Source: Candidatus Moranbacteria bacterium CG_4_9_14_3_um_filter_45_14 (GTDB taxonomy: Bacteria; Patescibacteriota; Minisyncoccia; Moranbacterales; UBA1568). From it: a DNA stretch of 32,698 nucleotides. Below are positions 4,167-25,253 of the stretch, in pieces. How positions within the stretch are numbered: the first letter of the stretch is position 1; each line of letters starts with the position of its first letter. A program made the translations under genes and the position numbers. Location of the stretch: NCBI GenBank assembly GCA_002790675.1, contig PFVP01000032.1, forward strand, positions 1 through 32,698, written 5' to 3'. The notes beneath the pieces were generated by a model. That model saw nothing but the letters and a program-made list of their open reading frames with translations. It had not been told where the DNA came from and did not search any database.

Positions 4167-4243
4167 CGATCTTTCAGACGCTTTCTCTTGGATTTTTGAG
4201 AGCATCCTCACTATCGTATCCGATCAAAAGAAGGCGTACGCAT

Positions 4244-4291
4244 CCCATATCGTTCCGCACCCGGTGGAAAGTAGATGGGATTTTTGCTTTT
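4244..4291 (+). terminator. intrinsic terminator after rpmE
   Basis: Nested hairpin with outer stem cccat/atggg and inner stem ttccgc/gtggaa (4244-4279), followed by atttttgctttt. Confidence 0.55.
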
Positions 4292-4336
4292 CTACCACCA
4301 TTTGTGCTAGTCTTCGGATGAACCAAACACATATTT

Positions 4337-5416: not shown

Positions 5417-5496
5417 ACAACACAGTTAACAGACAACAAGGGGACCTTAAAACACCGATTGTTTTTTGTTATTTGTTTTTTGTTAATTGACAAGCG

Positions 5497-6372
5497 ATGA
5501 CTATTGCAGAATTACAAAATGAATTTTTCACATCAGGGAACGAACATATTACTCCGGCTGATTTCTTCATTCTGCTCGCTCATATAAGCAAAAGAGAGAG
5601 GGTATTTCTGCTCGCTCACCCAGAATATTCCCTCAGCATATCGGACGAAGCGATGTTACGGGATTTTCTCAATCGTCGCCTACGGTATGAGCCGATAGCC
5701 TCTATCGTAGGGCACAAAGAATTCTATGGGTATGATTTTCTTGTCACTCGCGATACGCTCATCCCGCGACCAGAAACGGAAATTCTCGTCGAATTGACAC
5801 TCGATCATATCGACAAGAGACAACAGAAGATCACGATTATCGATATCGGGACGGGAAGTGGCAATATCATCATCTCTCTCACAAAAGAAATCGAAAAAAA
5901 CAATCGGGTATCGGATACCACATATTATGCTACCGATATTTCCACGGATGCGCTCACTATTGCGAAGGAAAATGCCAGACAACACGGTGTCGACAGTCTC
6001 ATTCGATTCTACGAAAGCGACCTCCTCGAATCAATAGAAAAAGAAATTCTTTCAACAGGGAAGGTTATTATCGTAGCCAACCTCCCCTATCTCTCGGAAT
6101 CCCTCTATAAAGATACTCTGCCAGATGTCCACAATTTTGAACCGAAGGGTGCGCTCATAAGTGACGAAGCTGGTCTCTCTCACTACTATCGACTGCTCCG
6201 ATATATCCAAAAGTTTCTCTCTTCACAAAACTCTCTCATCCTCTTTCTCGAAATCAGTCCGGAACAAACACTGATCCTCAAACACTTTATTCTTACACTT
6301 TTCCCAGATGCGAGAATACGCATACATAAAGACCTCGCGAAGAAAAACCGTGTTGTAGAAATCATCATATAA
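5497..6372 (+). CDS. prmC: release factor glutamine N5-methyltransferase (PrmC/HemK)
   Basis: SAM-binding motif IIDIGTGSGNI and catalytic N-x-P-Y variant VANLPYL. Immediately downstream of prfA, the conserved prfA-prmC pairing. Confidence 0.88.
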   Translation: MTIAELQNEFFTSGNEHITPADFFILLAHISKRERVFLLAHPEYSLSISDEAMLRDFLNRRLRYEPIASIVGHKEFYGYDFLVTRDTLIPRPETEILVELTLDHIDKRQQKITIIDIGTGSGNIIISLTKEIEKNNRVSDTTYYATDISTDALTIAKENARQHGVDSLIRFYESDLLESIEKEILSTGKVIIVANLPYLSESLYKDTLPDVHNFEPKGALISDEAGLSHYYRLLRYIQKFLSSQNSLILFLEISPEQTLILKHFILTLFPDARIRIHKDLAKKNRVVEIII

Positions 6373-6399
6373 CATTATCAAGAATATTCATTGAAGAAC

Positions 6400-6437
6400 A
6401 AAACAAAAACCCCGATTTACGGGGCTTTTGTTTTTTT
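6400..6437. terminator. bidirectional intrinsic terminator (prmC on +, micro-ORF on -)
   Basis: Stem ccccg/cgggg (6410-6414 with 6420-6424), loop attta, an A-run upstream and cttttgttttttt downstream. Confidence 0.65.
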
Positions 6438-6464
6438 GAACCAAAAGAACAGAAAACATCTAAA

Positions 6465-6560
6465 CTATTTTCGTTTCTTAGTAGCTTTCTTCTTTGTTAC
6501 CTTCTTTGCTACCTTCTTCTTTGCTACCTTCTTCTTGGTTACTTTTTTCTTAGCTGCCAT
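6465..6560 (-). CDS. 31-aa lysine-rich micro-protein (MAAKKKVTKKKVAKKKVAKKVTKKKATKKRK), absent from the ORF track
   Basis: The ATG at 6560 is preceded by a near-perfect SD, GAAGGAGGTGA (plus 6566-6576), with a 5-nt spacer. The TAG stop is at 6465-6467 and the bidirectional terminator follows. The nucleotide sequence repeats in K-K-K-V-A units. Confidence 0.6.
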   Translation of the reverse strand: MAAKKKVTKKKVAKKKVAKKVTKKKATKKRK

Positions 6561-7066
6561 AATAGTCACCTCCTTCTATACCACTTCCTCTTTTCGTATT
6601 TCATAAGTTTATGAAACGGAGAGAAAATATGGAATTATTTATTTTTATTTCACACAACAAATATTTATTTTGTGCGTGATACAGAAAAAGTTTCCTGTAC
6701 ACTTTTATTATACTCTTTTTTTGCAAATTGCATAGAGGTAAAAAATATCTGTCAACCCCCACAAACTCTTTTTTGCAAATACCCTGATAAATTTTCAAAA
6801 ATAAAAAATCATTCGATGCCGAAAGAAAACAAACGAAATATTTTTGTGAAAAAACACATACGTTTCAAAATATACAAAAAAAATATTCTCACGTGTTCAT
6901 TTCCAAAAAAGTTATCGTTCATCCTGCGAAGCGAAGGGAGAAGAAATAATTTCCCTCTCAACATATTTTTTGGTTCTTGTCCCACGGAAAAAACAGTCAG
7001 AAAAATTTGTGACTTTTCTCCCATAAACTTCCCTTTATCAGGCCAAAAATAACCGATTTTGTCCAG

Positions 7067-11852: not shown

Positions 11853-14351
11853 ATGTTGGATAAAAAACGCCAAGAAAAAATCAAAGGGCTTGTCGAATTG
11901 GAAAAAGTCATAACAGAAATTCTTGTGGCGAATGGACGTACTGTAGAGCCATTCATCAAGGTCTTCAATTACAGTGATGAAAATATCACCAAAAGTCCGC
12001 TCGGGTCTCTGATCGGTGTTTTTGAAATTGCAGAGCAGAGCGAAGATTCAGCTTATATCGTCAACTTCCTGGCATCCGTTGCGAAAAAAGAATACTTCAG
12101 CAACGGACGCCGTGGTGCTATCGAAAGTTTCGAAGCGGCTCTGCATAAAATCAACCTCGCCCTTGCGGAACTTGTCAGGCACGGCAATATCGCATGGCTG
12201 GGTAACTTCCACGGAGCACTCGGCGTGCTGGAGAAAAACAATCTCCATTTCTCTATCACCGGCAAATCGGAAATTCTTCTCTTGCGCGGTGAAAAAATCT
12301 CAGAAATCAGTGCTGGCCTGGCCTCCCCTGAATCCAACATCCACCCCATCAAAACATTCGTTGAGATTTCAAGCGGTCACCTGATGCTGGAAGATAAAAT
12401 CATTTTCACTTCACCAGAACTTCTCGACCTGCTCTCAATTGAAGACCTCAAAAAAAACGCTCTCCGTATGGATAAGGATCAATTCGCTCAATTCCTCCGG
12501 ACAGTCCTTGTGAATGAACTCAATATGGGAGGCTCTCTTATCGTCGATCTCAAAGAAAGTACTCCTCTGCCGGAGCCACGCAAGGAGACGAGGAAAGTTA
12601 CTACTGTCATCGAGAATATCTTCAGCAAAGAAGCTTTCGATTCACAGATCAAACCAAAGGAAAATACGGATCAACTGCCGGAGAAAGAGGAGAAATATTC
12701 GAACCCGAAGGAATATGTCGATTCCAAAACCGGACATATTTTCATCCAAGGAGAGACATCGGGAGAGGCGCCCGAACACCTTATTTTTGAACGAGCGAAA
12801 CTTTCAGCTCAGGACTTGCTCCATATCTTCAGCTCATTTTTTGCATCCCAGGGAAAACTCATCCGTAAAGGAAAAAAGTATGGTCTGCTCCTTTCTAATA
12901 CTCTGGCGGAAAAGAATGCCGTCATAACGCACAAAATGACACGCTTCCTCCGTAAGCAATGGCAGAAAGGAATGACTGCATCAACATCGGGGGTTTCTTC
13001 TTTGATCCTTTCTCTTCGCTCGGTGAAAATATCACAGAAGGCCAAAAAGAAAGTCCTCCCAGATACGATTACGACATCTTCATACGAAGAAACTCTGAAA
13101 TCCCGATTGACATTCACAGAGAAGAGAGCGGAAGATATTTCTTCTCTCGTAGAAGAGAAGAATGAAGATATACCGGATTTTATGAAAGAAAAGCTCGCTC
13201 GTTTCTATCGAGAGAATACCGCTGTCGTAACACAGATTGCCACCGAAACCTATTCTGCCAAGAAATTTCAGACGGAAAAATCCAACATATCCGTTCTTGT
13301 CCGAAAAATATTTCAAAGAATACCCTCTTCCTCTCATATGATTTGGAACAGTATCTCATCTCAAGCGAAAACCGTCATCAAGTCATTCTTTCCCTTCTTG
13401 AGAACGCTCTCTTCACGCTATCAAAAACGCACGTTCATCTTCAGCATCCTCTTTGTTGTTCTTTTCATCACAGGATCCGTTCTGTTGACACGCTCATTTT
13501 TGAAAAATACTCCTTCTCCACTGGCAGAAATATCCCAACCTCCGATTGAAACGTCCGTCTTTCCTCTTGAGACCGAAAAAAATGCCCACGTATTGGAAAC
13601 ATCCCCTCTTATCATCGCTACCGAACAAGATCCTCTCATCGCTTCCATACTTCTTGGCAATGAGACATACCTCATCACCACTACCTCTATTCAAAACACA
13701 AACGATAACAAACGCTATCCGTTACCATCTGGAGCTGGAGCGATACAGTTCGCCTCTCCGATGGATGATTTGCGTCTCATCTTCGTCTATACCAATACGA
13801 ACGAGCTCTTCTCATTCGCTCCTGTCAATCATACATTCACAAAAAATACCCTCACACTACCCGCAAACGCCCTCGTGGAAGATATAGGCACGTATCTCAC
13901 CTATCTCTATGTCCTCGATAGCGCTACTGATCAGATTTATCGCTTTCCACGGGCAGAAGGCGGATTTGGAGCAGGGTCAACTTGGTTCAGAAACACGATA
14001 GATATAGAAGACACGGCTCAAATGGCCATCAATGAAACTATCTTCATCGCTCCGAACAAGGCGACTGTCTCGGCATTCTTCCGTGGCCAGTTCGTAAAGA
14101 ATCTCGAATCTCCCGTTACACCGCTTTCTCTGACAAGCCTCTTCACTCACCCAGGACTCACAGATATCTACGCTCTCGATGCAGAGAATAAACGTGTCCT
14201 CATCTGGAACCAAGACAGTACTCTCTTGGCTCAATACTTCTCCGAACAATTCGCTTCCGCCGAAAGCATCACTGTGAACGAAAAAACGGGCGAATTTTTC
14301 CTGACAACTTCAAATACTCTTCTTTCTTTTAAAATCAATCTCGGGGAGTAA
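11853..14351 (+). CDS. 832-aa bitopic membrane protein: cytoplasmic N-domain (possibly a degenerate PP2C/SpoIIE-like fold), one TM, extracytoplasmic repeat (beta-propeller-like) domain
   Basis: A single strong TM helix (TFIFSILFVVLFITGSVLL) lies near residue 530. The C-terminal region carries recurring Y-x-L-D-x(4-5)-I-Y/W motifs (YLYVLDSATDQIYRF, DIYALDAENKRVLIWN). The N-domain assignment is a weak pattern impression only. Confidence 0.6.
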   Translation: MLDKKRQEKIKGLVELEKVITEILVANGRTVEPFIKVFNYSDENITKSPLGSLIGVFEIAEQSEDSAYIVNFLASVAKKEYFSNGRRGAIESFEAALHKINLALAELVRHGNIAWLGNFHGALGVLEKNNLHFSITGKSEILLLRGEKISEISAGLASPESNIHPIKTFVEISSGHLMLEDKIIFTSPELLDLLSIEDLKKNALRMDKDQFAQFLRTVLVNELNMGGSLIVDLKESTPLPEPRKETRKVTTVIENIFSKEAFDSQIKPKENTDQLPEKEEKYSNPKEYVDSKTGHIFIQGETSGEAPEHLIFERAKLSAQDLLHIFSSFFASQGKLIRKGKKYGLLLSNTLAEKNAVITHKMTRFLRKQWQKGMTASTSGVSSLILSLRSVKISQKAKKKVLPDTITTSSYEETLKSRLTFTEKRAEDISSLVEEKNEDIPDFMKEKLARFYRENTAVVTQIATETYSAKKFQTEKSNISVLVRKIFQRIPSSSHMIWNSISSQAKTVIKSFFPFLRTLSSRYQKRTFIFSILFVVLFITGSVLLTRSFLKNTPSPLAEISQPPIETSVFPLETEKNAHVLETSPLIIATEQDPLIASILLGNETYLITTTSIQNTNDNKRYPLPSGAGAIQFASPMDDLRLIFVYTNTNELFSFAPVNHTFTKNTLTLPANALVEDIGTYLTYLYVLDSATDQIYRFPRAEGGFGAGSTWFRNTIDIEDTAQMAINETIFIAPNKATVSAFFRGQFVKNLESPVTPLSLTSLFTHPGLTDIYALDAENKRVLIWNQDSTLLAQYFSEQFASAESITVNEKTGEFFLTTSNTLLSFKINLGE

Positions 14352-14365
14352 AACAATAAATAAAG

Positions 14366-14391
14366 GAGCCTCCTAAAAAGAGGCTCTTTTT
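14366..14391. terminator. intrinsic terminator between convergent 832-aa and 830-aa genes
   Basis: Stem gagcctc/gaggctc (14366-14372 with 14380-14386), loop ctaaaaa, then ttttt. An A-rich stretch lies upstream. Confidence 0.6.
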
Positions 14392-14436: not shown

Positions 14437-16929
14437 CTATACAGGCTTCTCGGCCAATTTCATCCGGCTCATAATTTCACGATTGACGATTGAGGCATCA
14501 CGACCATAACGGAGGCGTGAGAGCTCTTTGAATGCATTGGCTACTTCCTGATTACCATGTGTCGGTGGGTACGTCTTCATATTGAACGGCTTGGTAAGCT
14601 CATTGTTCATCAGGAGTCTCGCGAAACAATTGCGGTTATCCGCGTTTATCAGATCGCGTGCGGTAAACACTGGCAAAAACTGTTTTTCCAAAAATTCAGC
14701 ATCCTCAGAACCGACACGGAAAGACACCAATGATCCGACGTTACCGAATACCGCCTTGGCGATATCTTCTTTCAGTTGGGCGATAAATTGATGTGCCATC
14801 GTGAGTACCAACCGATACTTTCGGGCTTCTGAGAGAATCTGCGCGATAGAATTCGTTGTAACGTTTTGGAACTCATCCATATAGAGGTAGAAATCCGTCC
14901 GTTCATCTTCCGGCGTATCCACTCGAGAAAGAGCTGCCATCAGAATCTTCCCGACGATAACCATACCGAGTAATCGTGCGTTGATCTCACCGATCTTGCC
15001 TTTTGAAAGATTGACGAGAAGAATTTTCTTCCCATCCATAATGGCGCGGAAATCAAGCGTACTCTTCTGCTGAGCGATGATCGGACGCATCATATCGTTC
15101 GAGATGAACGTGGTAAGTTTGGAGGTAATATACGGCACCATATTGGCCAAAGCAGCTTCGCCACCGGCCTTCTCTGCTTCTTTCGTCCAAAAATCATAGG
15201 CGATTGGGTTGTTGCATTTGGAAAGTTTATATTTTCGGAAATCTTCGTCTGCCAGTACTTTGGAAATCTCCATCAAAGTCGATCCACTCTCTGGGTCTTC
15301 CATAATGAGAAGCATCGCATTGCGCATATATTGCTCGAACATCGGACCTCCAGTCGCTTTCAAATCATAAAGTTGATCAAAAATACCGATCATTTCATTG
15401 ATGACGAATGTCTTCTGCTCTGGATGAGCCGGATCGTACTCGAGCATATTGAGCCCGATTGGCCGTTCGGTATCTGATGGATCAAACAAAATGACATCTT
15501 CTGCACGTTCTTTCGGAATAGACGCCAAAATATCTTCGATGGCATCACCGTGCGGATCGATGAAACAAAGACCCTTACCAGCCAATACGTCTTTCTTGGC
15601 CATTTCTTGTAAATAAACAGATTTACCGACACCAGTCTGACCGATGACGTACATATGACGACGACGATCATTATCAGTGATACGGATATCCGTCTTTATA
15701 CCACGATAATCGTTGAAGCCAAGCAGAAGACCATCCTGTGGAATGTTGACTGGTGGTGGAGCTGTTCCGGATTTCAGCCACTTGATTTTCGGCGTAGCAG
15801 TAGTAGAAATCGGAAAATGGAAAATACTCGCCAGCTCTTCCACCGTAAGAATCATCTGCGTTTCATCATCGAAATTACGGAAGATGAAATCATACACGGA
15901 TCGTTTCTCACTGATGCGTTTTTTGATACGAAAGCTGTTCACTTCCGGATTTTCAAACTGCCCGAAAGCATTTTCCATATGACCCAAAATTTCTTCCGCC
16001 CGTTCCTGTGTCGCTCCCGATGCAATCAAACGTATATTGCTACGGAAAGCTCCTTTGTTGGTTTTTTCATCAATGGATTTCACAAGTTCCTGCTCCTCGG
16101 GAGTCAAACTTACTTGCTTCTTCTCCTCCTTGATACGCTCTCTATGCTTTGGGTTCTTCAAAATATCAAGTATCTCTCTCCCTACGGTAGAGGAAGTTTC
16201 ATAAAAAATCGAATTGCTTCTCGCGTCTTTCAGACGCTTTCCTTCCTGCATTTTCTGAGCGATTTTCTTCCCATCCTTACGCCAACTCATATTTGTCCGA
16301 GCAAGCAAAATTTGGATAGCTGCTCCTTCTTCAATAGTATTTAATTTACTCAAAGCATTCGATATCTCGTTCAATGGATCAACATCTACTGTACGATATG
16401 TACGCAGTGGCAGGGAATGCCCATGCGTCAATTCCAACACCGATACAGCCGTATGGCTCTCTGGAGAGAAAATGGTGTAATCAGAGACTTTCTCGATCAC
16501 TGCATGAGGGAAAAAACTGTGTACCTGTTTTTCCGCATTTTCACGGAAACGCTTCGGCACGGAAAGATAGAAGAATATCTCTTCACTCGAAGATGGATTG
16601 GCGATTTCGAAAACGATGGTAGGCATATCAAAAAAAAGACTCTTCAAAAAACCACCTTTCGATTTGAGGGTCGTGAGAGATGAGAGCAATTGTTCCATTG
16701 CTAATATTTCTTCTTTCCACGCTTCCGCACTCGATTGTTGTTGTCTTCCTTCGGGAATGTCTTTCTGTGTCACACGAATCATTTCTAGATCCATATTCAC
16801 AGACTGATTGACCTGATAGCGGAAACGGAGAAAACTCCGTACAACAAGGTATATCCCACTCACGACCGATACCGATGCGAATATCCAGATGAGTGATACG
16901 AAAATGGTATTGAAATCAAAGCCTGTCAT
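14437..16929 (-). CDS. membrane-anchored P-loop NTPase of the FtsK/HerA-VirB4/VirD4 (T4SS coupling-protein-like, AAA_10/DUF87 + TraG-D_C-type) group
   Basis: N-terminal TM helix (IFVSLIWIFASVSVVSGIYLVV) followed by a ~400-aa domain of unknown function. Walker A is VIGQTGVGKSVYL, then CFIDPHGD. Walker B is FYLYMDEFQN. The ARKYRLVLTMAHQFIAQL motif is typical of the TraG/TraD C-terminal region. Confidence 0.75.
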   Translation of the reverse strand: MTGFDFNTIFVSLIWIFASVSVVSGIYLVVRSFLRFRYQVNQSVNMDLEMIRVTQKDIPEGRQQQSSAEAWKEEILAMEQLLSSLTTLKSKGGFLKSLFFDMPTIVFEIANPSSSEEIFFYLSVPKRFRENAEKQVHSFFPHAVIEKVSDYTIFSPESHTAVSVLELTHGHSLPLRTYRTVDVDPLNEISNALSKLNTIEEGAAIQILLARTNMSWRKDGKKIAQKMQEGKRLKDARSNSIFYETSSTVGREILDILKNPKHRERIKEEKKQVSLTPEEQELVKSIDEKTNKGAFRSNIRLIASGATQERAEEILGHMENAFGQFENPEVNSFRIKKRISEKRSVYDFIFRNFDDETQMILTVEELASIFHFPISTTATPKIKWLKSGTAPPPVNIPQDGLLLGFNDYRGIKTDIRITDNDRRRHMYVIGQTGVGKSVYLQEMAKKDVLAGKGLCFIDPHGDAIEDILASIPKERAEDVILFDPSDTERPIGLNMLEYDPAHPEQKTFVINEMIGIFDQLYDLKATGGPMFEQYMRNAMLLIMEDPESGSTLMEISKVLADEDFRKYKLSKCNNPIAYDFWTKEAEKAGGEAALANMVPYITSKLTTFISNDMMRPIIAQQKSTLDFRAIMDGKKILLVNLSKGKIGEINARLLGMVIVGKILMAALSRVDTPEDERTDFYLYMDEFQNVTTNSIAQILSEARKYRLVLTMAHQFIAQLKEDIAKAVFGNVGSLVSFRVGSEDAEFLEKQFLPVFTARDLINADNRNCFARLLMNNELTKPFNMKTYPPTHGNQEVANAFKELSRLRYGRDASIVNREIMSRMKLAEKPV

Positions 16930-16971
16930 TTTTTTATTGATATCGGGTATTTTATTTTTCTCTCAGAAACA

Positions 16972-17397
16972 TCAGTCTTTTCGGATAAGGCCTTTCGCCA
17001 AAAGTCCATCGTACAATTTGTCCACCAACTCATCATGCATCCTATCAAGCGCATAGTAGTCCTGCAAAGAACGAGCGACTTTTACTGCATAAGCAACGCC
17101 TTTGACTTCAGCCAGATCAACGAGTTTCTGAATCTTGCTTTCTTCGTCTACGGTGGCGCTGATATTCTTCGCATCGAGAAGATGATCATCGGAAGGCTGG
17201 TTCGCTCCTGTCGCTTGAGGAGTCACTTTCGAAAGAATCTCGTTGTATTTTCCTTCGATGCGTTCAGTCGCTCCTTCAACCTTCGATTCCGGTTCTACGG
17301 AGAATCCTCTCGCTCCATCGTTTCCGTCTTGTTTTTCAGAAAACTTTTCCTGCAGAACATTCCCGCCTTCCATTCCTAAGATTTTCTCATCTGCCAT
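16972..17397 (-). CDS. hypothetical protein (141 aa), operon member
   Basis: ATG start, 42 nt upstream of the ATPase gene. The N-terminal half looks acidic and disordered, the C-terminal ~60 aa helical. No motif recognised. Confidence 0.5.
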   Translation of the reverse strand: MADEKILGMEGGNVLQEKFSEKQDGNDGARGFSVEPESKVEGATERIEGKYNEILSKVTPQATGANQPSDDHLLDAKNISATVDEESKIQKLVDLAEVKGVAYAVKVARSLQDYYALDRMHDELVDKLYDGLLAKGLIRKD

Positions 17398-17415
17398 AAT
17401 GTTGAAAATAATTGA

Positions 17416-17721
17416 TTACATCGCCCCTTCTGCCAATTCTTCCTTAAATTTGGTCACTATGCCACGAACAAAAATATTATACCCTGGAATCTTGCTCTCA
17501 AAAAACACTTCAAACTCTTCTGGCTTGGCCCCCCTATCCAGCATTGCTTCGTATTCCTTCATATTGGCACTCCCCAGTTTCTCCATCGTATCGATGAAAA
17601 TTCGTTTAAATAATGACTCTCCCATCTTCTCGAGAAGTTTTTCTTTCTTGTCTTCTGGAACATCCTCCAGATGAAAAGACTGTATAAGTTCTTCTTTCAA
17701 CGCCTCTTGATCAAGTGTCAT
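17416..17721 (-). CDS. hypothetical small acidic helical protein (101 aa), operon member
   Basis: ATG start with 18-19-nt gaps to both neighbours. No TM helix. No motif recognised. Confidence 0.5.
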   Translation of the reverse strand: MTLDQEALKEELIQSFHLEDVPEDKKEKLLEKMGESLFKRIFIDTMEKLGSANMKEYEAMLDRGAKPEEFEVFFESKIPGYNIFVRGIVTKFKEELAEGAM

Positions 17722-17740
17722 AGTCGTTATGTATAAAGAA

Positions 17741-20500
17741 TTATGGTTTAAAGAATCCTTTTATCTCTTTGCCTGTACGAAGAGCAACGGTGGTCATCCT
17801 TCTCGTATAATGGTCGATATTCTCACCGGCTTCTACCTGAGAGAACTTCACCCCGAAAGCTTTCTCGGAAGCTTCGGTGAATCTCACCAGTTCTTTCATC
17901 TGATCATAGTGAAGCGGGTTCTGTATTCTATCATATCTATATCCCAATTTCTCATTTTCAAAACCGTTCACATCTTTCAATACATCTGACATCTTCGTGG
18001 CGCCGAGTTTCTGCCCATTCATAGTATAATCATACTCTATCGGTACACTGGCCTCTCCGGGATTCATCATAAAGATATTCATTCGGATCCGCCCCAACGT
18101 CGTATTGAAACGGCCAAAATCTTCCGGATGTTCTGTAAGATAAGCTTTCGGATCAGTAAAAGCAATGTTCTCTTGTACCAATACATTTCTCGTTTCCTGA
18201 ATAGCAATATCTGGATTTGATCCATCTATCCCTCCTGCTAAAAGGGTATTCCCATCAGTCATTTTGATCACATCTGATTGATGAGGAGAACCACTACCTA
18301 AAATTTCATCCACTCTTGCATTAGTGAGCATCGTTTTAGGATGATTCGTAACATATTCCGCTATTTTTGCATCATTGGAAACAATCGAGGAAAGCTGATC
18401 GGAAGAAAGTGCTTTCGTCTGAGCGAGCACATCTGCAATAAATTTTTCATCAATGCCGTGTGATGAGAAATTGATTGTTTCTCCTGCCTTAAGTTGTACA
18501 TCACCATACTGATCCTTCAACGCATCAATAAAGTGCGTTTTCTCTGGTTCGTCGAGTTTCATCGTATCCGCTAACCTCCCCGCTATTTTCCAGACAGAAT
18601 CACCTTTCTGGACAACATAATCCTTATCGAACATACCGCTTATCATATCCGGTTTCACCACTGGTTGAGCCTCAGCGGGTATGATAGGTTTCGCTGAAAT
18701 ATTCGCAGGTAGGACTTCAGATCCGTAAAAAGCATTTACAATATGGTTCTTTGTCCAATCAACCGCTTCATTTCCGCCCAAATGATCCATCGCCACCTGT
18801 GTCAACCATCCGGATCCGACAAGACCCCCGACTCCTACAGCCCCCAACTTTCGCCACGTCTTGACTCTTTTTTCATTCTGTAATTTCCCATTGAGTGAAG
18901 CAATATCTTTTTTGAGGAATGCATTCAAAACATCGATATTTACTTCCGGTTTTGCACTCAGGTTTTCTTTTCCAAATATCTTGAGTTGTTCTTGTATTTC
19001 TTCTTCTGATTGAGTTGTTTTACTTCTTTCTCCGAAACTTTCCAAGAGTGCTTCAACACCAACTGCTGTTCCCGCACCGCTGGCAATTTTTCGTATCACG
19101 GAAACGAAAGCCATCGCTCCTAAAGCTGTTCCGCCCCCACCTGATAACACCGTTGCTGTCGTAATGCCCAAAAAAGCGGCTGTTATCGCTAATTTTCCTT
19201 TCAGAGGAATGCGATTATATGCACGCCCCATATTGCCGAAAAGAACCGTCATTTTCTCGAAAGCACTTGCGTCCGAGAAATGCTCTGATTTATATCGAAC
19301 GCGTTCATCTATAAGATTTTTTGATTCATCAATCTTATAATACCTCAATAATTGTTCTGCTCTTCTTGATTGTTGTTCTCGAGTGAGAGATGCATCATTT
19401 TGCAATGTTTCTATTTCAGCCTCCCTGAGATTCTGCAGCGCGTTTTCATAAAGTACTTGATTTTCACCTTTCTTTTTATCCTTCTCAATACCGAACATAC
19501 TTCTAATTTTTTTCCAAGCAGTTGTCGTTTCAGCATCTTCTTTGACCCATGCAGCACGGAATTCTCTCACGAAAATACGAAGGTCGTCGATATTTCGCTG
19601 TCCCCCCTCTCGATCTGATAAAACAGACTCTCCCTCCTGTTGTTCAGAAGTTTTCTCATCGATCATTTCTCTTTCTTTTACAACGTCATCCGGTCTTTCA
19701 CTTGCCTCTTCCAGAGGAGGATGGAGTTCCAAGTATTGCTTGGCAAAAACTTTTCCTGAAACATAGTCTTCTTCGGTATCAGTATCATCAGTATGATCAC
19801 CCAAAGAAGGAGTTTCTGTATCTTGTTTCGCTGGAATTTTTTCCGATATGGATCCAACGCCGATGTCTACCAATTTCCATCCATTCTGATGTCTTTTCCA
19901 AGCGGATTCTGTTTTCACAATACTATTGTTTTTACCAACCAAATCATCGCCACTACGCCTATAATACGCTTTGTGCCCATTTTCACTCATCAAAATCAAG
20001 AGTTCCCCGTCAGGAACGCTCTCTACGAATGTTTTTACCCGAAAATCTTCCAATTCCTCTTCTCTCGGTATTTCTTCCTGTTTTGACTCAGCAACTCTAA
20101 CAAAATCGGTACTTTGTTCCATACTGGCAGGAACAACCGCTTTCGCTCGCTCATCTTCTTCCTGTTGCTGTGTTTTCAATGTATTCTTATTGTTATTTCT
20201 TTTTGGGTTGAATGGGCTTCTTATATATCTGTCATCGACATCTTTGCCAGCCGGAAAATTCTGAGTGACATTTGCTGTCACCTCAACCTTGACTGCTGGC
20301 ATCGCGAACTTCGCAGGTTGTGTTCTTATAGAAACATCTGCATTCTGTGCGGGCTCTGATTGCTGTTTCGGTTCTTCCCGAGGTACATCGAGACCAAGCT
20401 TTGCTCTGACACGTTTTATCATAGGCGCTACCAACTCCTGAGCGAATTTTTCTCCCTCTGCTCTAGGTAAATACGGTAATAATTTTCTGGGCTCACTCAT
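17741..20500 (-). CDS. 919-aa membrane protein with LysM peptidoglycan-binding domain
   Basis: The N-terminal ~440 aa are charged. Gly/Ala-rich TM segments follow (LAITAAFLGITTATVLSGGGG..., LGAVGVGGLVGSGWLTQVA). A LysM-like segment is present (YVVQKGDSVWKIAGRLADTMKLDE...LKAGETINF), then a ~250-aa C-terminal domain of unknown function. The start overlaps the upstream stop (ATGA). Confidence 0.7.
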   Translation of the reverse strand: MSEPRKLLPYLPRAEGEKFAQELVAPMIKRVRAKLGLDVPREEPKQQSEPAQNADVSIRTQPAKFAMPAVKVEVTANVTQNFPAGKDVDDRYIRSPFNPKRNNNKNTLKTQQQEEDERAKAVVPASMEQSTDFVRVAESKQEEIPREEELEDFRVKTFVESVPDGELLILMSENGHKAYYRRSGDDLVGKNNSIVKTESAWKRHQNGWKLVDIGVGSISEKIPAKQDTETPSLGDHTDDTDTEEDYVSGKVFAKQYLELHPPLEEASERPDDVVKEREMIDEKTSEQQEGESVLSDREGGQRNIDDLRIFVREFRAAWVKEDAETTTAWKKIRSMFGIEKDKKKGENQVLYENALQNLREAEIETLQNDASLTREQQSRRAEQLLRYYKIDESKNLIDERVRYKSEHFSDASAFEKMTVLFGNMGRAYNRIPLKGKLAITAAFLGITTATVLSGGGGTALGAMAFVSVIRKIASGAGTAVGVEALLESFGERSKTTQSEEEIQEQLKIFGKENLSAKPEVNIDVLNAFLKKDIASLNGKLQNEKRVKTWRKLGAVGVGGLVGSGWLTQVAMDHLGGNEAVDWTKNHIVNAFYGSEVLPANISAKPIIPAEAQPVVKPDMISGMFDKDYVVQKGDSVWKIAGRLADTMKLDEPEKTHFIDALKDQYGDVQLKAGETINFSSHGIDEKFIADVLAQTKALSSDQLSSIVSNDAKIAEYVTNHPKTMLTNARVDEILGSGSPHQSDVIKMTDGNTLLAGGIDGSNPDIAIQETRNVLVQENIAFTDPKAYLTEHPEDFGRFNTTLGRIRMNIFMMNPGEASVPIEYDYTMNGQKLGATKMSDVLKDVNGFENEKLGYRYDRIQNPLHYDQMKELVRFTEASEKAFGVKFSQVEAGENIDHYTRRMTTVALRTGKEIKGFFKP

Positions 20501-21477
20501 AGTTTTGTTTTGTCAATAGCTGATTCCTCCAAACTTCTCAGTATCGCTATAAATACCTTGTTCCCATCTCTTCTCGGTACTGATTGGTATCTCTCCAAAT
20601 ACTCGATTATCATCTCTTGCACCTGTGGCGAAGAAAACATCCTCCAGAGTCTCGCTCTCTCCCTGCGTGAAACAAAGGCTTTCTCAGCACGTGCTCTGTC
20701 AGAAATCTTTCGATCAAATGCCTGCCGTTCGTCGATAATCAATTTTCCAAGCATATTGATCGTTTCCCGTCCTTTCGGCTGATCCACCAAGAAATCATCC
20801 AGTTCTCTCCTCCAGAGGGTATCCGAGATCATCTCCGCTGGCGCACGATCGCCTCTTCTCTCTATTTTGACACCTGTCTCCCCTTTTTTTGAACCGACAA
20901 GAACCTTGAGGTCAGCATTCGGTTCTTTGGTCATTTTTTCTCCTTGTGCTTTCATAATAGCTTCTTGCACTTTCATAGGCATCGTATTTACAATCAAGCG
21001 AAGATCGTCAAATACTTCAAGGATACGCAATTTTTCAGTTGTTGAGTCTCTCTTTTTCCCTGGTGCAAGCGGTTCATCATTCAGTGTGTTCCATCGAGTC
21101 CCTATTTTCTCAATATCTCCGTAAAGTCTGTCATAAAGAGCTTCTTCATCTGCTTTTTTGAGAGTCTTACTCCATTCATCCAACTCTCCAGTAACGACCG
21201 AAAATTTTCGAACAAAAGATTCTTCCAACTCTCTTATCTGTGTCTCATCCGTTTCCATAGAATCACGCAAAACGGCGTCTGTCATTGCGGGACCGGATTG
21301 TTCATCTGATTTTTCCGTGGCGGGTTCTTCTACAGAGTCCTTGAATCCATCAGTAAAAACAAGACTCCCTTCTTCTTCAGATTGTTGAGACCCAGATAAC
21401 CCCGAACTGCTGGAAGATTTCTCACTGCCGGCAGCCCTCATCGATTGACGACCGTGCATACTTTCAAAAGCGTTCAT
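20497..21477 (-). CDS. hypothetical acidic soluble protein (326 aa), first gene of the operon
   Basis: Ser/Glu-rich, disordered N-terminus and a helical C-terminal half. Its TGA stop overlaps the ATG of the 919-aa gene at 20497-20500. No motif recognised. Confidence 0.55.
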   Translation of the reverse strand: MNAFESMHGRQSMRAAGSEKSSSSSGLSGSQQSEEEGSLVFTDGFKDSVEEPATEKSDEQSGPAMTDAVLRDSMETDETQIRELEESFVRKFSVVTGELDEWSKTLKKADEEALYDRLYGDIEKIGTRWNTLNDEPLAPGKKRDSTTEKLRILEVFDDLRLIVNTMPMKVQEAIMKAQGEKMTKEPNADLKVLVGSKKGETGVKIERRGDRAPAEMISDTLWRRELDDFLVDQPKGRETINMLGKLIIDERQAFDRKISDRARAEKAFVSRRERARLWRMFSSPQVQEMIIEYLERYQSVPRRDGNKVFIAILRSLEESAIDKTKL

Positions 21478-21537
21478 TTCGTTTTTCTTTTCAACTTATC
21501 TTTGCTATAATTCTATCATAGAAAACAAAATAAATAT

Positions 21538-23160
21538 ATGTTCAAACAATCAATACCCCGTCCTCACCACATCGCAACATGGATTCTTCTTACTCTTATA
21601 CTGACACTCGCTTTCACTGTAAGAATCTATCATATCGACAGTATCCCAGCCGGCATCTATCCTGACGAAGCTGCTAATGGTGTTGATGCTTTGAATGCGA
21701 TAGAAACCGACGATTACAAACTCTTCTACCCGGCCAATTATGGCAGGGAGGGTTTTTTCATCAATCTTCAGGCTCTCTCTATCGCACTCATAGGCAACAC
21801 GATTCTCGGACTAAAACTCTGGTCCATCCTCTTCGGCACGTTCTCAGTCCTCGGCATCTATCTCTTGAGCAAAGAACTCTTCCATAGGCGATCAGCCGGT
21901 ATCCTCTCGGCCTTTATGCTCGCCACTTCCTATTGGGCGATCAATTTCTCCCGTATCGGATTTCGCGCCATTATGGTCACCTTCATTCTTTCTTTCTCAT
22001 TCTATTTCTTCTTCCAAGGTCTGCGCACCAGAAGATTCCGTGATTTCCTCATCTCCGGCGCTATTTTAGGACTTGGCCTCCATACCTACATTGCGTTCCG
22101 GGTCACACCAATCATCCTCATCCTCCTCCTCCCTGCACTCATCCTTTCTTATGAAAATTTTCTCAAACGCTACTACAAACACGCTCTCTTCTTTCTCTTC
22201 GGGGCTTTCATCACCGCTCTGCCGATGTTTTATAATTTCTTCGTCTCGCATCCGGAAGATTTCGCATCACGTTCGGATCAGATCTCCGTCTTTTCACCGG
22301 AAATAAATCATGGAGATATCATAGGGACTCTTGCAAGAACATTCTCTCTTTCTCTCATCAAATACAATTTTTTCGGCGATCAGAATTGGCGACACAACTA
22401 CCCTCCGTATCCGATCCTCGATCCATTTGTCGGTACATTCTTTCTTGCCGGATTCCTTTTCACTCTCTGGCAGGCTGTCACCCTTATCGGTCGGCGTATC
22501 CGCGATAAAGATCGTGACACCCGCCTCGTCATCGACTTCTTCTTGCTCGGTTCTTTCTTCATTATGCTCATCCCCGAGTTTCTGACAGGGGAAGGTCTCC
22601 CTCACGCCCTCCGCTCCATCGGAACGCAGTTGCCGGTTTTCTTGATGGCCACTCTCGGCGCATTCTGGATTTTACAGAAAGCACTACGTTCACAAACGGG
22701 AGCGCGCATCGCATTTTTCTCCATCCTCATCATCACTCTTTTCGGTAGCGCCATTTTCAATCTCACAAAATACTTTGTTTTCTTCGCGAATAGTTCTGCT
22801 GCAGCAGGCTCTTTCAATGAGAACTACACCAATATGGGTCGTTATCTGCTCTCTCTCCCCGCAGACACGAAAAAGTACGTACTCTTCGATGAAAAAGGGA
22901 ATGACAGTCATTTCAATCTCCCTGTCTACGCTCATCCCGTCTATTTCCTCACTTCCGGGCGTGTCGCCAATATGGAGATCATCAGAAGCGATACTGTCAT
23001 TCACGGCCCCGCTCTCTTTCTTATGGTGAATTATAATGATGAAATAGCAAAAAAAATCGAGAAGTTTTCTCCCGGGGCATCCGTAGAGCGTATCGATATG
23101 AACGGACCGAATCGTGAAGGTGGAGATTTCAATGTCATTCTCTTGCCAGGGAACAAATAA
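21538..23160 (+). CDS. GT-C fold glycosyltransferase, family 39/83-like (PMT/ArnT-type, polyprenyl-phosphate-sugar dependent)
   Basis: Multi-TM N-terminal half with a first-loop acidic motif (IYPDEAANGVDA) and a soluble C-terminal domain. A perfect TATAAT lies at 21506-21511. Confidence 0.75.
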   Translation: MFKQSIPRPHHIATWILLTLILTLAFTVRIYHIDSIPAGIYPDEAANGVDALNAIETDDYKLFYPANYGREGFFINLQALSIALIGNTILGLKLWSILFGTFSVLGIYLLSKELFHRRSAGILSAFMLATSYWAINFSRIGFRAIMVTFILSFSFYFFFQGLRTRRFRDFLISGAILGLGLHTYIAFRVTPIILILLLPALILSYENFLKRYYKHALFFLFGAFITALPMFYNFFVSHPEDFASRSDQISVFSPEINHGDIIGTLARTFSLSLIKYNFFGDQNWRHNYPPYPILDPFVGTFFLAGFLFTLWQAVTLIGRRIRDKDRDTRLVIDFFLLGSFFIMLIPEFLTGEGLPHALRSIGTQLPVFLMATLGAFWILQKALRSQTGARIAFFSILIITLFGSAIFNLTKYFVFFANSSAAAGSFNENYTNMGRYLLSLPADTKKYVLFDEKGNDSHFNLPVYAHPVYFLTSGRVANMEIIRSDTVIHGPALFLMVNYNDEIAKKIEKFSPGASVERIDMNGPNREGGDFNVILLPGNK

Positions 23161-23354: not shown

Positions 23355-25253
23355 ATGGATTTTTTGAAAAAACACGCTTATCTCATCGTTGCAGGGATCC
23401 TTTCTCTGCATTTCATCCTTGCTCTCGTCATTTCCAGTCAGGAATCGATGATTTATGATGAACGGGCTCATATCCCGGCTGCCTATAGCTATGTTCGCTT
23501 CGGCGATATGCGCCTCAATCCGGAACACCCGCCACTTCTCAAAGACCTTGCAGGGCTTCCTCTTCTCGCCCTTGATCTCTCTTTTCCTCTTAACTCTCCC
23601 GAGTGGCGATCAGGGACGAACGAACAATGGTCAGTCGGAGATATGTTTGTCAATTGTACGCGACCGGAGATGGGTTGCAACAATGCCGACAAGATTCTTT
23701 TCTGGTCCCGCCTGCCTATCACGCTGGTAGCCGTCGTCTTGGGCATTGCCATCTTTCTCTGGACGAAAGAACTCTCAGGGACGCTCGCGGGGCTTTTCGC
23801 CGTCACACTCTATGCTTTCGATCCCAATATCATCGCGCACAATCATTATGTCACGACTGATATCGGTATCGCTGCATTCCTTTTTTTCGCATTCTATTTT
23901 TTCGTCCGTTTCTTGAAAAATCCGAGTCTCAAGAACGTCATCATCGCCGGCATTTTCCTCGGCCTCGCAGAGCTCGCCAAAGTCTCTGCCATACTCCTCT
24001 TCCCTCTGTTCGGATTGACAGTCATTCTCTATGCACTCACAAAACAGAAACCTCCGAGTGATACACAGGGTCCTTTCTCCTTCAAACTCCGCACGCTCCT
24101 CGCATACAGTCTGAAATTCGCCGGAAGCGTTCTCGTCTGTTTCATACTCATCTGGTCTCTCTATGCCTGGAATACTATCAATATGCCAGGAGAAAAACTC
24201 GTCGACAGCGCCAACCTCTATCTCTCTCAAAAAAATGTCGCAGCGGAATTTGCGCACACTCTCGTAGTCAATACGAGTGAGAATGCTTTCCTCAAACCAC
24301 TGAGTGAATATTTCCTCGGGGTGGCGATGATAGTCGCCCGTGTTGAAAGCGGTAACCCTCATTACTTCCTCGGTGAAGTGACGATGACTCCCTCACGCTG
24401 GTATTTTCCGACTGTTTTCTTATTGAAAGAAACATTACCCTTCCTCCTGCTCCTTCTCCTCACAACATTCTTTACTATGTATCGCATCGGCAGAACTCTC
24501 ATTCAAGGGAAAAAAGCAGGTCTCTGCTCTTTCCTCTCCCGCTCTTTCCAGAATAAAACCGCTCAGTATCTCATCTTTTTCTTTGTCCTTCTGTATAGTT
24601 ACGTCAGTATCACGGGAAAATTGAACATCGGTTTCCGACACCTCTTCCCTCTGCTCCCCTTCCTCTCTATGCTCGTTGCGAAAACTGCCTTTGATTTCTT
24701 CAAACGCTTCGATACCGACAAAACGACAAAGAAAATGCTCTCATTTTTCCTCGGAGGCATCACTCTCTTTGTTATGGCCATTCCCATTCTGGCATATCCG
24801 AATTATCTCTCGTATTTCAATATCGCAGCCGGCGGACATAGCAATGGATACACATACGTCAGTGATTCCAATTACGATTGGGGACAAGATTTGAAAAGAC
24901 TCGGCTTGTTCATCGAGACACACAATCGATGCCAGGCTGGAACAGCGAATTTCAGCGAAGGAAAAAAATGCGCTCTCACGAAAGACTATCCTCCTATCGA
25001 CAAGATACGCATCGATTATTTCGGTGGTGCCAATCCTTCCGTTTCTCTCAAGGAAGTATTCATTCCTTGGTGGGATCAGAGAGAGCCGGAGCCGGGCTGG
25101 TATGCCATCTCATCATTCTTCTACCAAGAGAGTATCTATAAGGAGGAACCTGCTAATCAACAAGATTATTCTTGGCTGCGAAACATCCGGCCAGTAGCTC
25201 GTGCCGGGGATTCCATCTTTATCTATTACATCCCTAGGGAAGATGCGAGATAA
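23355..25253 (+). CDS. GT-C fold glycosyltransferase, family 39-like (PMT_2/ArnT-type)
   Basis: The first loop reads YDERAHIPAAYSY...NPEHPPLLKDLAGLPL (DE motif plus HPPL, typical of the PMT family). More than 10 TM segments and a soluble C-terminal domain. Confidence 0.75.
   Translation: MDFLKKHAYLIVAGILSLHFILALVISSQESMIYDERAHIPAAYSYVRFGDMRLNPEHPPLLKDLAGLPLLALDLSFPLNSPEWRSGTNEQWSVGDMFVNCTRPEMGCNNADKILFWSRLPITLVAVVLGIAIFLWTKELSGTLAGLFAVTLYAFDPNIIAHNHYVTTDIGIAAFLFFAFYFFVRFLKNPSLKNVIIAGIFLGLAELAKVSAILLFPLFGLTVILYALTKQKPPSDTQGPFSFKLRTLLAYSLKFAGSVLVCFILIWSLYAWNTINMPGEKLVDSANLYLSQKNVAAEFAHTLVVNTSENAFLKPLSEYFLGVAMIVARVESGNPHYFLGEVTMTPSRWYFPTVFLLKETLPFLLLLLLTTFFTMYRIGRTLIQGKKAGLCSFLSRSFQNKTAQYLIFFFVLLYSYVSITGKLNIGFRHLFPLLPFLSMLVAKTAFDFFKRFDTDKTTKKMLSFFLGGITLFVMAIPILAYPNYLSYFNIAAGGHSNGYTYVSDSNYDWGQDLKRLGLFIETHNRCQAGTANFSEGKKCALTKDYPPIDKIRIDYFGGANPSVSLKEVFIPWWDQREPEPGWYAISSFFYQESIYKEEPANQQDYSWLRNIRPVARAGDSIFIYYIPREDAR

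Follow-up and report, generated by a model that had tools for sequence, protein, structure and literature searches.

A DUF8128-type coupling protein and its neighbouring genes in a compact chromosomal unit of a Candidatus Moranbacteria genome

Introduction

Patescibacteria, the bacteria of the candidate phyla radiation (CPR), depend on host cells, and a type IV secretion system (T4SS) is essential for epibiotic growth in the one species tested. This study concerns five adjacent genes in Candidatus Moranbacteria bacterium CG_4_9_14_3_um_filter_45_14 (assembly GCA_002790675.1, contig PFVP01000032.1, positions 1 to 32,698); this whole 32.7-kb stretch, which was analysed at its full length, is called the window. 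The last of the five genes encodes an ATPase that we securely identify as a coupling protein of the DUF8128 type, a type IV coupling protein (T4CP) of the VirD4/TrwB class. The gene before it encodes a small acidic protein, p141, which gene order and gene fusions securely point to as a dedicated cytoplasmic partner of the ATPase. Loci are denoted below by L and individual family proteins by P.

The five-gene unit

An original prediction, made from the DNA letters and their translations, had described five minus-strand open reading frames (ORFs), and their sizes and coordinates were confirmed exactly. In operon order they are as follows.

20497-21477, minus strand: gene 1, p326, an ORF of 326 amino acids (aa)
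17741-20500, minus strand: gene 2, p919, an ORF of 919 aa
17416-17721, minus strand: gene 3, p101, an ORF of 101 aa, DUF5663
16972-17397, minus strand: gene 4, p141, an ORF of 141 aa
14437-16929, minus strand: gene 5, the ATPase, an ORF of 830 aa

The tight gaps and the ATGA overlap that had been described are also present: p326 and p919 overlap by 4 nucleotides (nt), and the following junctions measure 19, 18 and 42 nt. No internal terminator was seen between the five genes in a scan of the region. As judged from the sequence, the genes form a compact unit and are probably co-transcribed. Two candidate transcription signals lie at its ends.

21515-21544, minus strand: promoter-like site, the candidate operon promoter, in the divergent intergenic region upstream of p326, with 9 of 12 hexamer matches in a consensus scan
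14366-14386, minus strand: intrinsic-terminator-like hairpin, 51 nt 3' of the ATPase stop, with a 9-bp stem (five GC pairs), a 3-nt loop and a T-rich tail

Since the counts of promoter and terminator sites across the region were not above shuffled-sequence expectation, the promoter-like site and the hairpin are only compatible with a single transcription unit.

Architecture and fold of the ATPase

The original prediction had proposed a membrane-anchored T4SS coupling-protein/VirB4-like ATPase with four motifs and an N-terminal transmembrane (TM) helix. All of these elements were located, at residues 430 (GQTGVGKS), 458 (DPHGD), 683 (YMDEFQN) and 702 (ARKYRLVLTMAHQ), with the helix at residues 11-29, and the protein can be divided into three parts.

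16843-16899, minus strand: N-terminal membrane anchor, residues 11-29, hydropathy score 2.15
15730-16794, minus strand: DUF8128 (PF26449), the cytoplasmic N-terminal domain, residues about 46-400, with a predicted fold like that of the VirB4 N-terminal domain
14437-15729, minus strand: motor, residues about 401-830, a T4CP-type P-loop NTPase with Walker A (430-437), DPHGD (458-462), an all-alpha insertion (about 505-632), Walker B (683-689) and the ARKY...AHQ motif (702-714)

The key residues of the motifs are invariant among 58 diverse family members. In the AlphaFold model the anchor is a portion of a long helix (residues 6-44). An N-terminal anchor is present in 91 of 125 full-length family representatives; in about 20 of the 125 a TM-less N-terminal extension of 125-150 aa, often p141-like, replaces it. 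The DUF8128 assignment is a precomputed annotation of P0001, a protein 100% identical to the ATPase, and of all 120 homologues listed.

The sequence of the motor is T4CP-like. It exceeded three Pfam cutoffs by small margins, those of TraG-D_C (27.4 vs 22 bits), TrwB_AAD_bind (24.8 vs 20.5 bits) and T4SS-DNA_transf (23.7 vs 20.1 bits), and its scores with the NCBIfam TraD/VirD4 models were all far under the equivalog cutoffs. The ATPase remained under the Pfam cutoffs for HerA-type enzymes (DUF87, 19.3 vs 23.2 bits; HerA_C, 12.6 vs 22 bits), and no NurA-like partner was found among its window neighbours, as had been stated before. FtsK_SpoIIIE gave 12.7 bits against a cutoff of 24, over the Walker A region only, and the ATPase has a single TM helix; neither AAA_10 nor CagE_TrbE_VirB matched it in Pfam. 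In sequence searches of the PDB, TrwB was the best match both with the single sequence (E=4e-5) and with the profile of the 58-member family (E=3.9e-8); the profile also found DotL (E=2.5e-6), and no VirB4 chain appeared with it at E<=0.01.

The full-length AlphaFold model, built from a diverse alignment, had a predicted local distance difference test score (pLDDT) of 87.3. Its top PDB match in Foldseek, which spans about 930 aligned columns, was full-length VirB4/TrwK of R388 (E=7e-15). TrwB chains matched the C-terminal half only (about 420 columns, E about 1e-11 to 1e-12, target TM-score (TMt) 0.60-0.66, root-mean-square deviation 4.5-5.7), followed by Cag-beta (TMt 0.54-0.56) and then by HerA, which was weaker than TrwB. 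When the N-terminal domain was modelled alone (residues 30-400; pLDDT 89.8, predicted TM-score 0.88), its top 14 PDB matches were all TrwK/VirB4, with E values of 6e-7 to 6.5e-4 and moderate query TM-scores of 0.39-0.44; the matches after these were unrelated (E>=1e-2). According to these models, DUF8128 is predicted to adopt a VirB4 N-terminal-domain-like fold, which is new here, and the ATPase is predicted to consist of one TM helix, this domain and a TrwB-like motor with an all-alpha insertion. The description as both coupling-protein-like and VirB4-like was therefore apt, the former for the motor sequence and the TrwB fold, the latter for the N-terminal fold.

Relatives of the ATPase

The family is very large. 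A word-seeded search gave more than 6400 matches, the top 120 at 70% identity or more, and an exhaustive search of 1.84 billion representatives gave 21,469 clusters at E<=1e-3 and 5,607 at E<=1e-30 (50%-identity clusters), most of which span from residue about 10-100 through the C-terminus. Literature searches on DUF8128 found no paper. The operon had been called orphan and undescribed; these terms do not suit a very large family that has a Pfam DUF and whose unlinked chromosomal state was reported in 2025 (PMC12102498).

Outside Patescibacteria, tblastn against plasmids found 232 records with 24-28% identity over 76-86% of the ATPase, in Streptomyces, Bacillus, haloarchaea and Sulfolobus. On the 27.5-kb Bacillus subtilis plasmid NZ_CP154917 the relative WP_345805471.1 (885 aa) opens a conjugation operon that continues with genes for Replic_Relax, conjugal transfer and an AAA_10 VirB4. 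The CPR family hidden Markov model (HMM) matched WP_345805471.1 across DUF8128 and motor at E=3e-92, and gave no match to the VirB4 of this plasmid at E<10. The linear plasmid p1 of Streptomyces sp. BHT-5-2 carries, in this order, PrgI (VirB3), VirB4, an 814-aa ORF of the family, Replic_Relax and an SLT + NlpC/P60 hydrolase. On a Natronorubrum aibiense plasmid two genes share the family protein between them, one coding for DUF8128 (395 aa) and one for the motor (1014 aa) (WP_152944001.1 and WP_193565100.1); they adjoin conjugal transfer and pilin genes. In conjugation-type T4SS clusters of monoderms and archaea, the DUF8128 family thus fills the place of the coupling protein. Placement in a characterised non-secretion family would have spoken against the original prediction; the ATPase instead classifies robustly with the coupling-protein slot of conjugation clusters. 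Since the coupling-protein class is a secretion and transfer family, the earlier general idea of translocation survives.

The family also corresponds to phrog_5156 (E=8e-89), and full-length relatives occur in large Bacillus phages (SP-10, Goe26, phage G and 0105phi7-2) and in a plasmid-prophage (family HMM, E=1e-44 to 1e-65). The phage homologues sit in replication modules and are annotated as 'DNA helicase or translocase'. In two phages, two homologous TM-rich ORFs of 114-136 aa lie directly 5' of the ATPase (L171, 0105phi7-2, 4976-5696; L172, Goe26, 3917-4789). They are not homologous to p141 or DUF5663 (hhalign probability <2%). These ORFs could be VirB2- or VirB3-like membrane partners, in which case the phages would carry a mini-translocation module.

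In 80 diverse CPR loci the recurring neighbours of the ATPase were a Sigma70_r4 + HARE-HTH protein, a Xer-type recombinase, DivIC, likely TopA (six loci, judged from sequence) and clade-specific unknown proteins; they included no T4SS parts. The Sigma-70 region 4 + HARE-HTH protein, of about 350 aa, is encoded just upstream on the same strand in 24 of these loci (for example L093, 8804-9853; counted at positions -1 to -3 relative to the ATPase) and may be a lineage-specific regulator or partner. In one CPR subclade, whose loci include L104, L111, L122, L123, L126, L131, L141, L147, L161 and L166, the Xer-type tyrosine recombinase (11 loci) and DivIC/FtsB (7 loci) are encoded no more than three genes downstream of the ATPase. 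The Xer, DivIC and RmuC neighbours hint at a connection with DNA or cell division and may be due to chance in small genomes.

It is unlikely, in our judgement, that the ATPase is a stand-alone DNA translocase (FtsK-, HerA- or TraB-like) that acts on DNA of the cell itself or on incoming DNA, for instance when chromosomes or dimers are resolved, in repair, or in the import or export of DNA, with a regulatory subunit in p141 and with p919 and p326 unrelated to it. The ATPase is a member of the FtsK-HerA superfamily and has retained an all-alpha insertion of the DNA-binding type (TrwB_AAD_bind), its phage homologues have the replication context described above, and RmuC (window and L087), Xer-type recombinases, DivIC, likely TopA, RuvC, gyrase and DnaB are encoded nearby. 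However, CPR genomes are small and rich in such genes, and the neighbour signal is clade-specific. The Pfam matches to FtsK_SpoIIIE and HerA stayed under their cutoffs, and non-CPR plasmids pair the family with relaxase-like proteins and a T4SS. A role as FtsK substitute was considered in particular; it is weakened by the sub-threshold FtsK match and by the separately annotated ftsK of the saccharibacterium TM7x (PMC10768705).

Several variants of the ATPase gene were noted. In one syntenic CPR clade it is split at the DUF8128/motor junction (L089, L090, L095, L097-L100, L108, L112, L113, L143, L148, L154, L159 and L162); a split is also seen at L169 (8647-12868). The separating stop is TAA, TAG or TGA, translation could restart 3-9 nt further on in most of 15 loci, and both ORFs are in a common frame in 14 of the 15. 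An alternative genetic code was rejected as the explanation since the stop varies in this way and the restart is near. Splits in this clade and on the haloarchaeal plasmid suggest that DUF8128 can act as a separate polypeptide. Gram-positive T4SSs have a stand-alone VirB4-N-terminal-domain-like protein, TrsD, of which free DUF8128 is reminiscent. Three loci carry tandem paralogues of the DUF8128 ATPase (L088, 6828-13096; L092, 242-6143; L096, 1430-6950), separated by an unknown protein of about 170-190 aa whose family is also found 3' of the ATPase in 10 loci. Members of 1,580-2,006 aa (L083, 10001-16021; P0177, P0179, P0184, P0186, P0187, P0190, P0194 and P0197) have a normal DUF8128 + motor half and then a very long uncharacterised C-terminal extension.

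p141, a partner of the ATPase

For the study of gene order we used 80 related loci from Moranbacteria-type genomes, with an ATPase 63-90% identical to that of the window. p141 lies directly upstream of the ATPase in 77 of them by tblastn and in 79 by iterated HMM. Since the genes flanking the operon are kept in the same loci, synteny within this clade is partly plain collinearity and independent evidence is needed; for p141 such evidence exists. The N-terminal half of the protein is acidic and variable, whereas its helical C-terminal domain (about 65 aa) is conserved, with D75 and H121-D122 invariant. At least 10 of 150 family representatives, P0121 (E=7e-18) and nine more, carry this C-terminal domain as a fusion at the N-terminal end of their ATPase. 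In P0176 two TM helices stand between the p141 domain and the ATPase that follows, an arrangement that puts p141 in the cytoplasm. In the distant locus L087, too, among other neighbours, the ATPase is preceded by an unfused p141 homologue (E=3e-19; hhalign 98.8%). When 92 small ORFs that adjoin the ATPase in diverse CPR loci were compared by Moranbacteria HMMs and by hhalign, only those of L087 (p141) and L086 (DUF5663) matched. p141 has no sequence relative in the PDB. Its net charge is -9, and that of p101 is -8.

The upstream proteins p101, p919 and p326

p101 belongs to DUF5663 (PF18908; 29.1 bits vs a cutoff of 23.7, 78 of 84 model positions), and the 29 close relatives found by the word-seeded search all carry this family as a precomputed annotation. 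Literature searches on DUF5663 found no paper. The gene is present in 59 of the 80 related loci by tblastn and in 61 by iterated HMM. In the distant locus L086, DUF5663, a giant protein of 2108 aa and the ATPase recur among different flanks; in the other diverse CPR loci DUF5663 was absent by HMM and hhalign.

The first 270 aa or so of p919 are acidic and variable, and the conserved core after them (about 270-919) includes a C-terminal domain. The protein had been described as polytopic, which was overstated: a single segment (451-469) exceeds 1.6 on the Kyte-Doolittle scale, accompanied by weaker Gly/Ala-rich segments, and Gly/Ala-rich hydrophobic segments lie at about 434-480 and 556-578, with 1-3 in family members. 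The LysM domain assigned to it did not hold up either. The half-motif VxxGDSxWKI at about residues 628-642 is LysM-like, and PF01476 gave 16.2 bits against a cutoff of 20.9 over 15 of 43 model positions; LysM was found at E<=0.01 in 1 of 41 family members, and the family profile weakly matched one LytE LysM repeat (E=0.0015, 33 residues). On these matches p919 would be LysM-like at best. The word-seeded search found seven homologues among 5.8 billion proteins. In the related loci, p919 was detected in 39 by tblastn and in 58 by iterated HMM, always directly upstream of the DUF5663 gene and with most of the conservation at positions 270-900, and the length of the family ranges from 768 to 1602 aa.

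p326 is acidic and soluble, has no TM segment and matched no Pfam, NCBIfam, PADLOC or PHROG family. It was recognised in 3 of the 80 related loci by tblastn and in 8 by iterated HMM. Its slot is hypervariable; elsewhere it is filled by one or two ORFs of 330-1030 aa, rarely recognisable as homologues. The earlier view that four of the five proteins lack a recognisable motif beyond LysM fails for p101, which, like the N-terminal domain of the ATPase, falls into a Pfam family that has a name but no characterisation. Co-conservation of the five families, which the original prediction had made decisive, holds only in part: it is found for p141 (77 of 80 loci, and fusions), extends to DUF5663 and the giant p919 only within Moranbacteria-type genomes, and is essentially absent for p326. 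Within these genomes it is plausible that DUF5663 and the giant belong to one functional unit with the ATPase.

We also considered whether p141, p101, p919, p326 or up832, a protein encoded beside the operon (see below), could be a diverged VirB3, VirB6 or VirB8, a relaxase or a peptidoglycan hydrolase. No profile match was obtained at E<=1 in a comparison that covered all ORFs of the Bacillus, Streptomyces and haloarchaeal conjugation clusters.

Flanking genes, selection and divergence

The operon is surrounded in the window by chromosomal housekeeping genes (rpsB, tsf, prfA, prmC, a glycosyltransferase-4/MraY-like gene, rmuC, holB, an FtsQ-like POTRA gene, mreB and murA), with no integrase or transposase among them. 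Converging on its 3' end is the gene of up832 (11853-14351, plus strand), an 832-aa protein with a single central TM helix (residues 527-545) and no Pfam, NCBIfam, PADLOC or PHROG match; it is kept at the same position in 60 of the 80 related loci (25-84% identity), and the linkage may be plain collinearity. Divergent from the operon are two tandem polytopic glycosyltransferases of the PMT_2 type (dolichyl-phosphate-mannose-like), at 21538-23160 and 23355-25253 on the plus strand. This pair is syntenic in 55-58 of the 80 related loci, the synteny extends to the more distant L084, and the two enzymes might act on envelope proteins as modifiers. Elsewhere in the window, GC content dips to 0.349 at 6001-7000, compared with about 0.42-0.46 in the adjoining 1-kb bins, around a 126-aa ORF (6672-7052) without family match; positions 6500-6999 are among the least conserved parts of the window relative to L036 (69.6% identity).

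L036 is the closest relative. Compared with it, the ratio of nonsynonymous to synonymous substitution rates (dN/dS) was 0.045 for the ATPase, 0.08 for p101, 0.17 for p141 and p919 and 0.31 for p326; these are rough values, with dS near saturation. All five genes are under purifying selection, including the two small ones, for which its absence had been named as a refuting result. Nucleotide identity to L036 is 82-90% in the flanks and 67-73% over p919 and p326. At about 21500, the 5' boundary of the operon, it rises abruptly from 69% to 85%; elsewhere the change is a gradient. dS of the five operon genes (0.91-1.77) is about twice that of four flanking genes (0.53-0.64), and recombinational exchange between lineages or saturation noise could account for this.

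These data bear on the view that only p141 and the ATPase form a functional unit, and that the co-transcribed DUF5663, giant and p326 genes encode functionally unrelated proteins of the envelope or surface, adjacent through collinearity in a compact genome. We regard this as quite improbable, a shade below the chances of a DNA translocase. In its favour, conservation of the flanking PMT, RmuC, p258 and up832 genes in the same loci is similar to that of p101 and p919, the ATPase evolves far more slowly than p919 and p326, and neither p919 nor p326 was found beside the ATPase in diverse CPR loci. Against it stand the recurrence of DUF5663 with a giant and the ATPase among the different flanks of L086, the position of the giant gene, which abuts the DUF5663 gene in all 58 loci, and the tight spacing with its 4-nt overlap and no internal terminator.

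The hypervariable upstream genes and the raised dS of the operon might also suggest a module of anti-phage defence or of a mobile element, with an ATPase of the HerA/DUF87 type at its core, as might weak PADLOC matches (mad8, 42.9 bits; HerA, at most 19 bits). These matches, however, cover the P-loop core only, and no partner protein matches a defence family. The ATPase gene is near-universal, single-locus, vertically conserved and placed among housekeeping genes without integrase or transposase, so that this reading is highly improbable.

Coupling proteins and T4SS genes in Patescibacteria

Nearly all Patescibacteria carry the DUF8128 ATPase, which is highly constrained and whose chromosomal gene has no linkage to virB4 or relaxase genes. 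Quinonero-Coronel et al. (2025, PMC12102498) report 5,713 VirD4-type T4CP homologues in 2,918 of 3,035 Patescibacteria genomes, 148 of them near virB4, and state that T4CP genes are often unlinked from the T4SS. Accordingly, the missing linkage to VirB4 and relaxase weakens, and does not exclude, membership of the ATPase in the T4CP class. A study by transposon sequencing described a T4SS cluster without recognisable coupling protein or relaxase (PMC10633639).

The original prediction had noted that canonical T4SS scaffold proteins, pilins and a relaxase were missing, and this is borne out: the window contains no VirB4 or other T4SS gene, and no scaffold, pilin or relaxase gene lies near the ATPase in 166 of 167 related loci. 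VirB4 and PrgI occur within about 10 kb of the ATPase in the remaining one (L149, 5184-7601), where they adjoin it. The VirB4 of L149 matches Streptomyces VirB4 at E=1e-109, and this resemblance suggests that the metagenome contig is probably actinobacterial, not CPR. A homologue of Replic_Relax was found neither in the window nor in the 167 loci. The lack of a relaxase argues for a substrate other than a relaxase-DNA complex, and for a protein rather than DNA.

The step from missing scaffold genes to a minimal module did not hold. In the Table S1 excerpts of PMC12102498, VirB4 is marked present in nearly all Moranbacteria genomes, among them GCA_001784735.1, the source of L021, which has the same operon with an ATPase 86% identical to that of the window. 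Since sister genomes, on these excerpts, carry VirB4 elsewhere, the absence of scaffold genes from the window is no evidence for a minimal system.

A coupling-protein and adaptor module

At about even chances, we consider the operon to be a coupling-protein and adaptor module around a chromosomal DUF8128 T4CP of the VirD4/TrwB class, which serves a distal T4SS or, less likely, works alone. T4CP genes are typically encoded with substrates and adaptors, not with virB4. The module is favoured because the DUF8128 family acts as coupling protein in three non-CPR lineages, because T4CP genes typically sit in such company, and because the co-transcribed genes encode small acidic proteins and fast-evolving large proteins. 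The motor would be docked at the membrane, presumably as a hexamer, and p141, perhaps together with DUF5663, would serve as an adaptor at its membrane-proximal N-terminus. Motor and adaptor would recruit a substrate, probably a protein rather than DNA, or an envelope partner, and hand it to a T4SS encoded elsewhere in the genome; movement across the membrane by the motor alone seems less likely. The fast-evolving upstream genes, p919 and p326, may encode cargo or an envelope-side partner.

Several points weigh against such a module. The coupling of the ATPase to a distal T4SS is inferred. VirB4 is recorded in 2,417 of the 3,035 genomes, fewer than the 2,918 with a T4CP, and the T4CP homologue of S. 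epibionticum was non-essential for epibiotic growth, whereas other T4SS genes were essential (PMC12102498); together these observations suggest a T4SS-independent role. The Bacillus phages with full-length relatives have no T4SS, so the family is not strictly tied to one. p101, p919 and p326 were undetected beside the ATPase in the 80 diverse CPR loci, apart from DUF5663 in L086, and the positional giants of L084 and L086 were rejected as p919 homologues (hhalign probability <1%). The PMT, RmuC, p258 and up832 flanks, being kept in the same loci about as well as p101 and p919, indicate that Moranbacteria-wide conservation of gene order could be mostly plain collinearity. The hydrophobic segments of p919 are unusual for a secreted cargo. 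Looked for as a possible secretion signal, a positively charged C-terminal tail is present in p919, and 35 of 40 tails of the giants are net positive, compared with 51% of controls, a weak signal of small magnitude from sequences that are not independent.

Some of these points would suit a self-contained minimal translocon in which the ATPase, the giant and small accessory subunits span the envelope without a VirB-type scaffold, which we hold to be rather unlikely. The operon is compact, p919 has conserved hydrophobic segments and a LysM-like motif, which would lie outside the cell in a three-segment topology, and the family works in Bacillus phages without a T4SS. The VirB4 N-terminal domain docks onto membrane components in the R388 structure, and the ATPase has its own VirB4-like N-terminal domain. 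In addition, T4CP homologues are found in at least about 500 more CPR genomes than VirB4 (PMC12102498). On the other hand, the giant is kept only in one order-level clade, positional giants elsewhere are non-homologous (that of L084 has no TM segment), and p919 has weak membrane segments. None of the partners is similar to VirB3, VirB6 or VirB8 or to a channel protein of any kind, the ATPase neighbours are unrelated in the 80 diverse CPR loci, and sister genomes carry VirB4 elsewhere, as noted above from the Table S1 excerpts.

PMC12102498 also states that exaptation of the Patescibacteria T4CP "cannot be ruled out". In the bolder form of this idea, the DUF8128 ATPase, which has a membrane anchor of its own and a VirB4-like N-terminal domain, and its lineage-specific partners (p141, DUF5663 and the giant in the window) would constitute a T4SS-independent, self-sufficient translocase, a third VirB4/VirD4 branch exapted from conjugation. 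We give it a low probability, similar to that of a DNA translocase. If true, such a translocase would be a near-universal part of Patescibacteria that might move DNA or fast-evolving proteins across the envelope in episymbiosis, and it would explain why T4CPs are commoner than VirB4 in CPR and why phage relatives exist without a T4SS.

Significance

The operon elaborates, in a lineage-specific way, a component that is known but has no assigned function, the orphan coupling protein of Patescibacteria; it is not demonstrably a new envelope-spanning system. Three points are new: DUF8128 has a predicted fold like that of VirB4, the family is homologous over its full length to plasmid coupling proteins of monoderms and archaea and to phage ATPases, and p141 is a partner of the ATPase, as gene fusion supports. 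A coupling-protein homologue that occurs, on the figures of PMC12102498, in about 96% of Patescibacteria genomes, unlinked from the T4SS, now has a concrete predicted anatomy of anchor, VirB4-like N-terminal domain and TrwB-like motor. Through gene fusion, p141 becomes the first candidate interaction partner of the Patescibacteria coupling protein. A T4CP family that carries a VirB4-type N-terminal domain also bears on the divergence of the two T4SS ATPases. The fast-evolving co-transcribed genes are reasonable first candidates for cargo or envelope partners in host interaction, as hypotheses and not as parts of a demonstrated machine.

Comparison with known systems

The closest counterparts are the DUF8128 plasmid coupling proteins of Bacillus, Streptomyces and Natronorubrum, which share full-length homology and have Walker A, DPHGD, Walker B and ARKY..HQ in the same order. 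The Bacillus and Streptomyces proteins differ in adjoining VirB4, PrgI and a Replic_Relax relaxase-like gene, and the haloarchaeal one in adjoining conjugal transfer and pilin genes, whereas the window ATPase is chromosomal, has no T4SS or relaxase genes within 15 kb and is accompanied by CPR-specific partners that match nothing in those clusters. Unlike the window ATPase, the Bacillus plasmid protein has no N-terminal TM helix. The orphan VirD4-like T4CPs of PMC12102498, which are chromosomal, near-universal and rarely near virB4, are almost certainly the same genes; the excerpts of that paper describe no domain architecture, VirB4-like N-terminal fold or neighbouring genes.

VirB4 (TrwK of R388) is alike in its two-domain architecture of about 800 aa and in the N-terminal fold, but its motor has no sequence match to the ATPase family and the TM-scores of the N-terminal domain are only moderate. 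The coupling proteins of diderm T4SSs (TrwB, VirD4, DotL and Cag-beta) resemble the ATPase in motor fold, all-alpha insertion, N-terminal anchor and T4CP Pfam domains. They differ from it in sequence (about 16% identity); TrwB has two TM helices and the window ATPase one, and the additional 350-aa N-terminal cytoplasmic domain of the latter matches nothing in TrwB structures. The phrog_5156 phage ATPases are alike over their full length and also have small ORFs immediately upstream on the same strand; they differ in identity (20-23%), in their phage or plasmid-prophage context and in that the upstream ORFs are TM-rich.

Among T4CP adaptors and chaperones, IcmS, IcmW and LvgA bind the C-terminal tail of DotL, and VirE1 is a chaperone. 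No sequence similarity of p141 or p101 to T4CP adaptors was found, and the likeness is a functional analogy only: p141 and p101 are small, acidic and encoded beside a coupling protein, and p141 is fused to it in some lineages. In contrast to the DotL adaptors with their site on the C-terminal tail, p141 attaches at the N-terminus of the ATPase.

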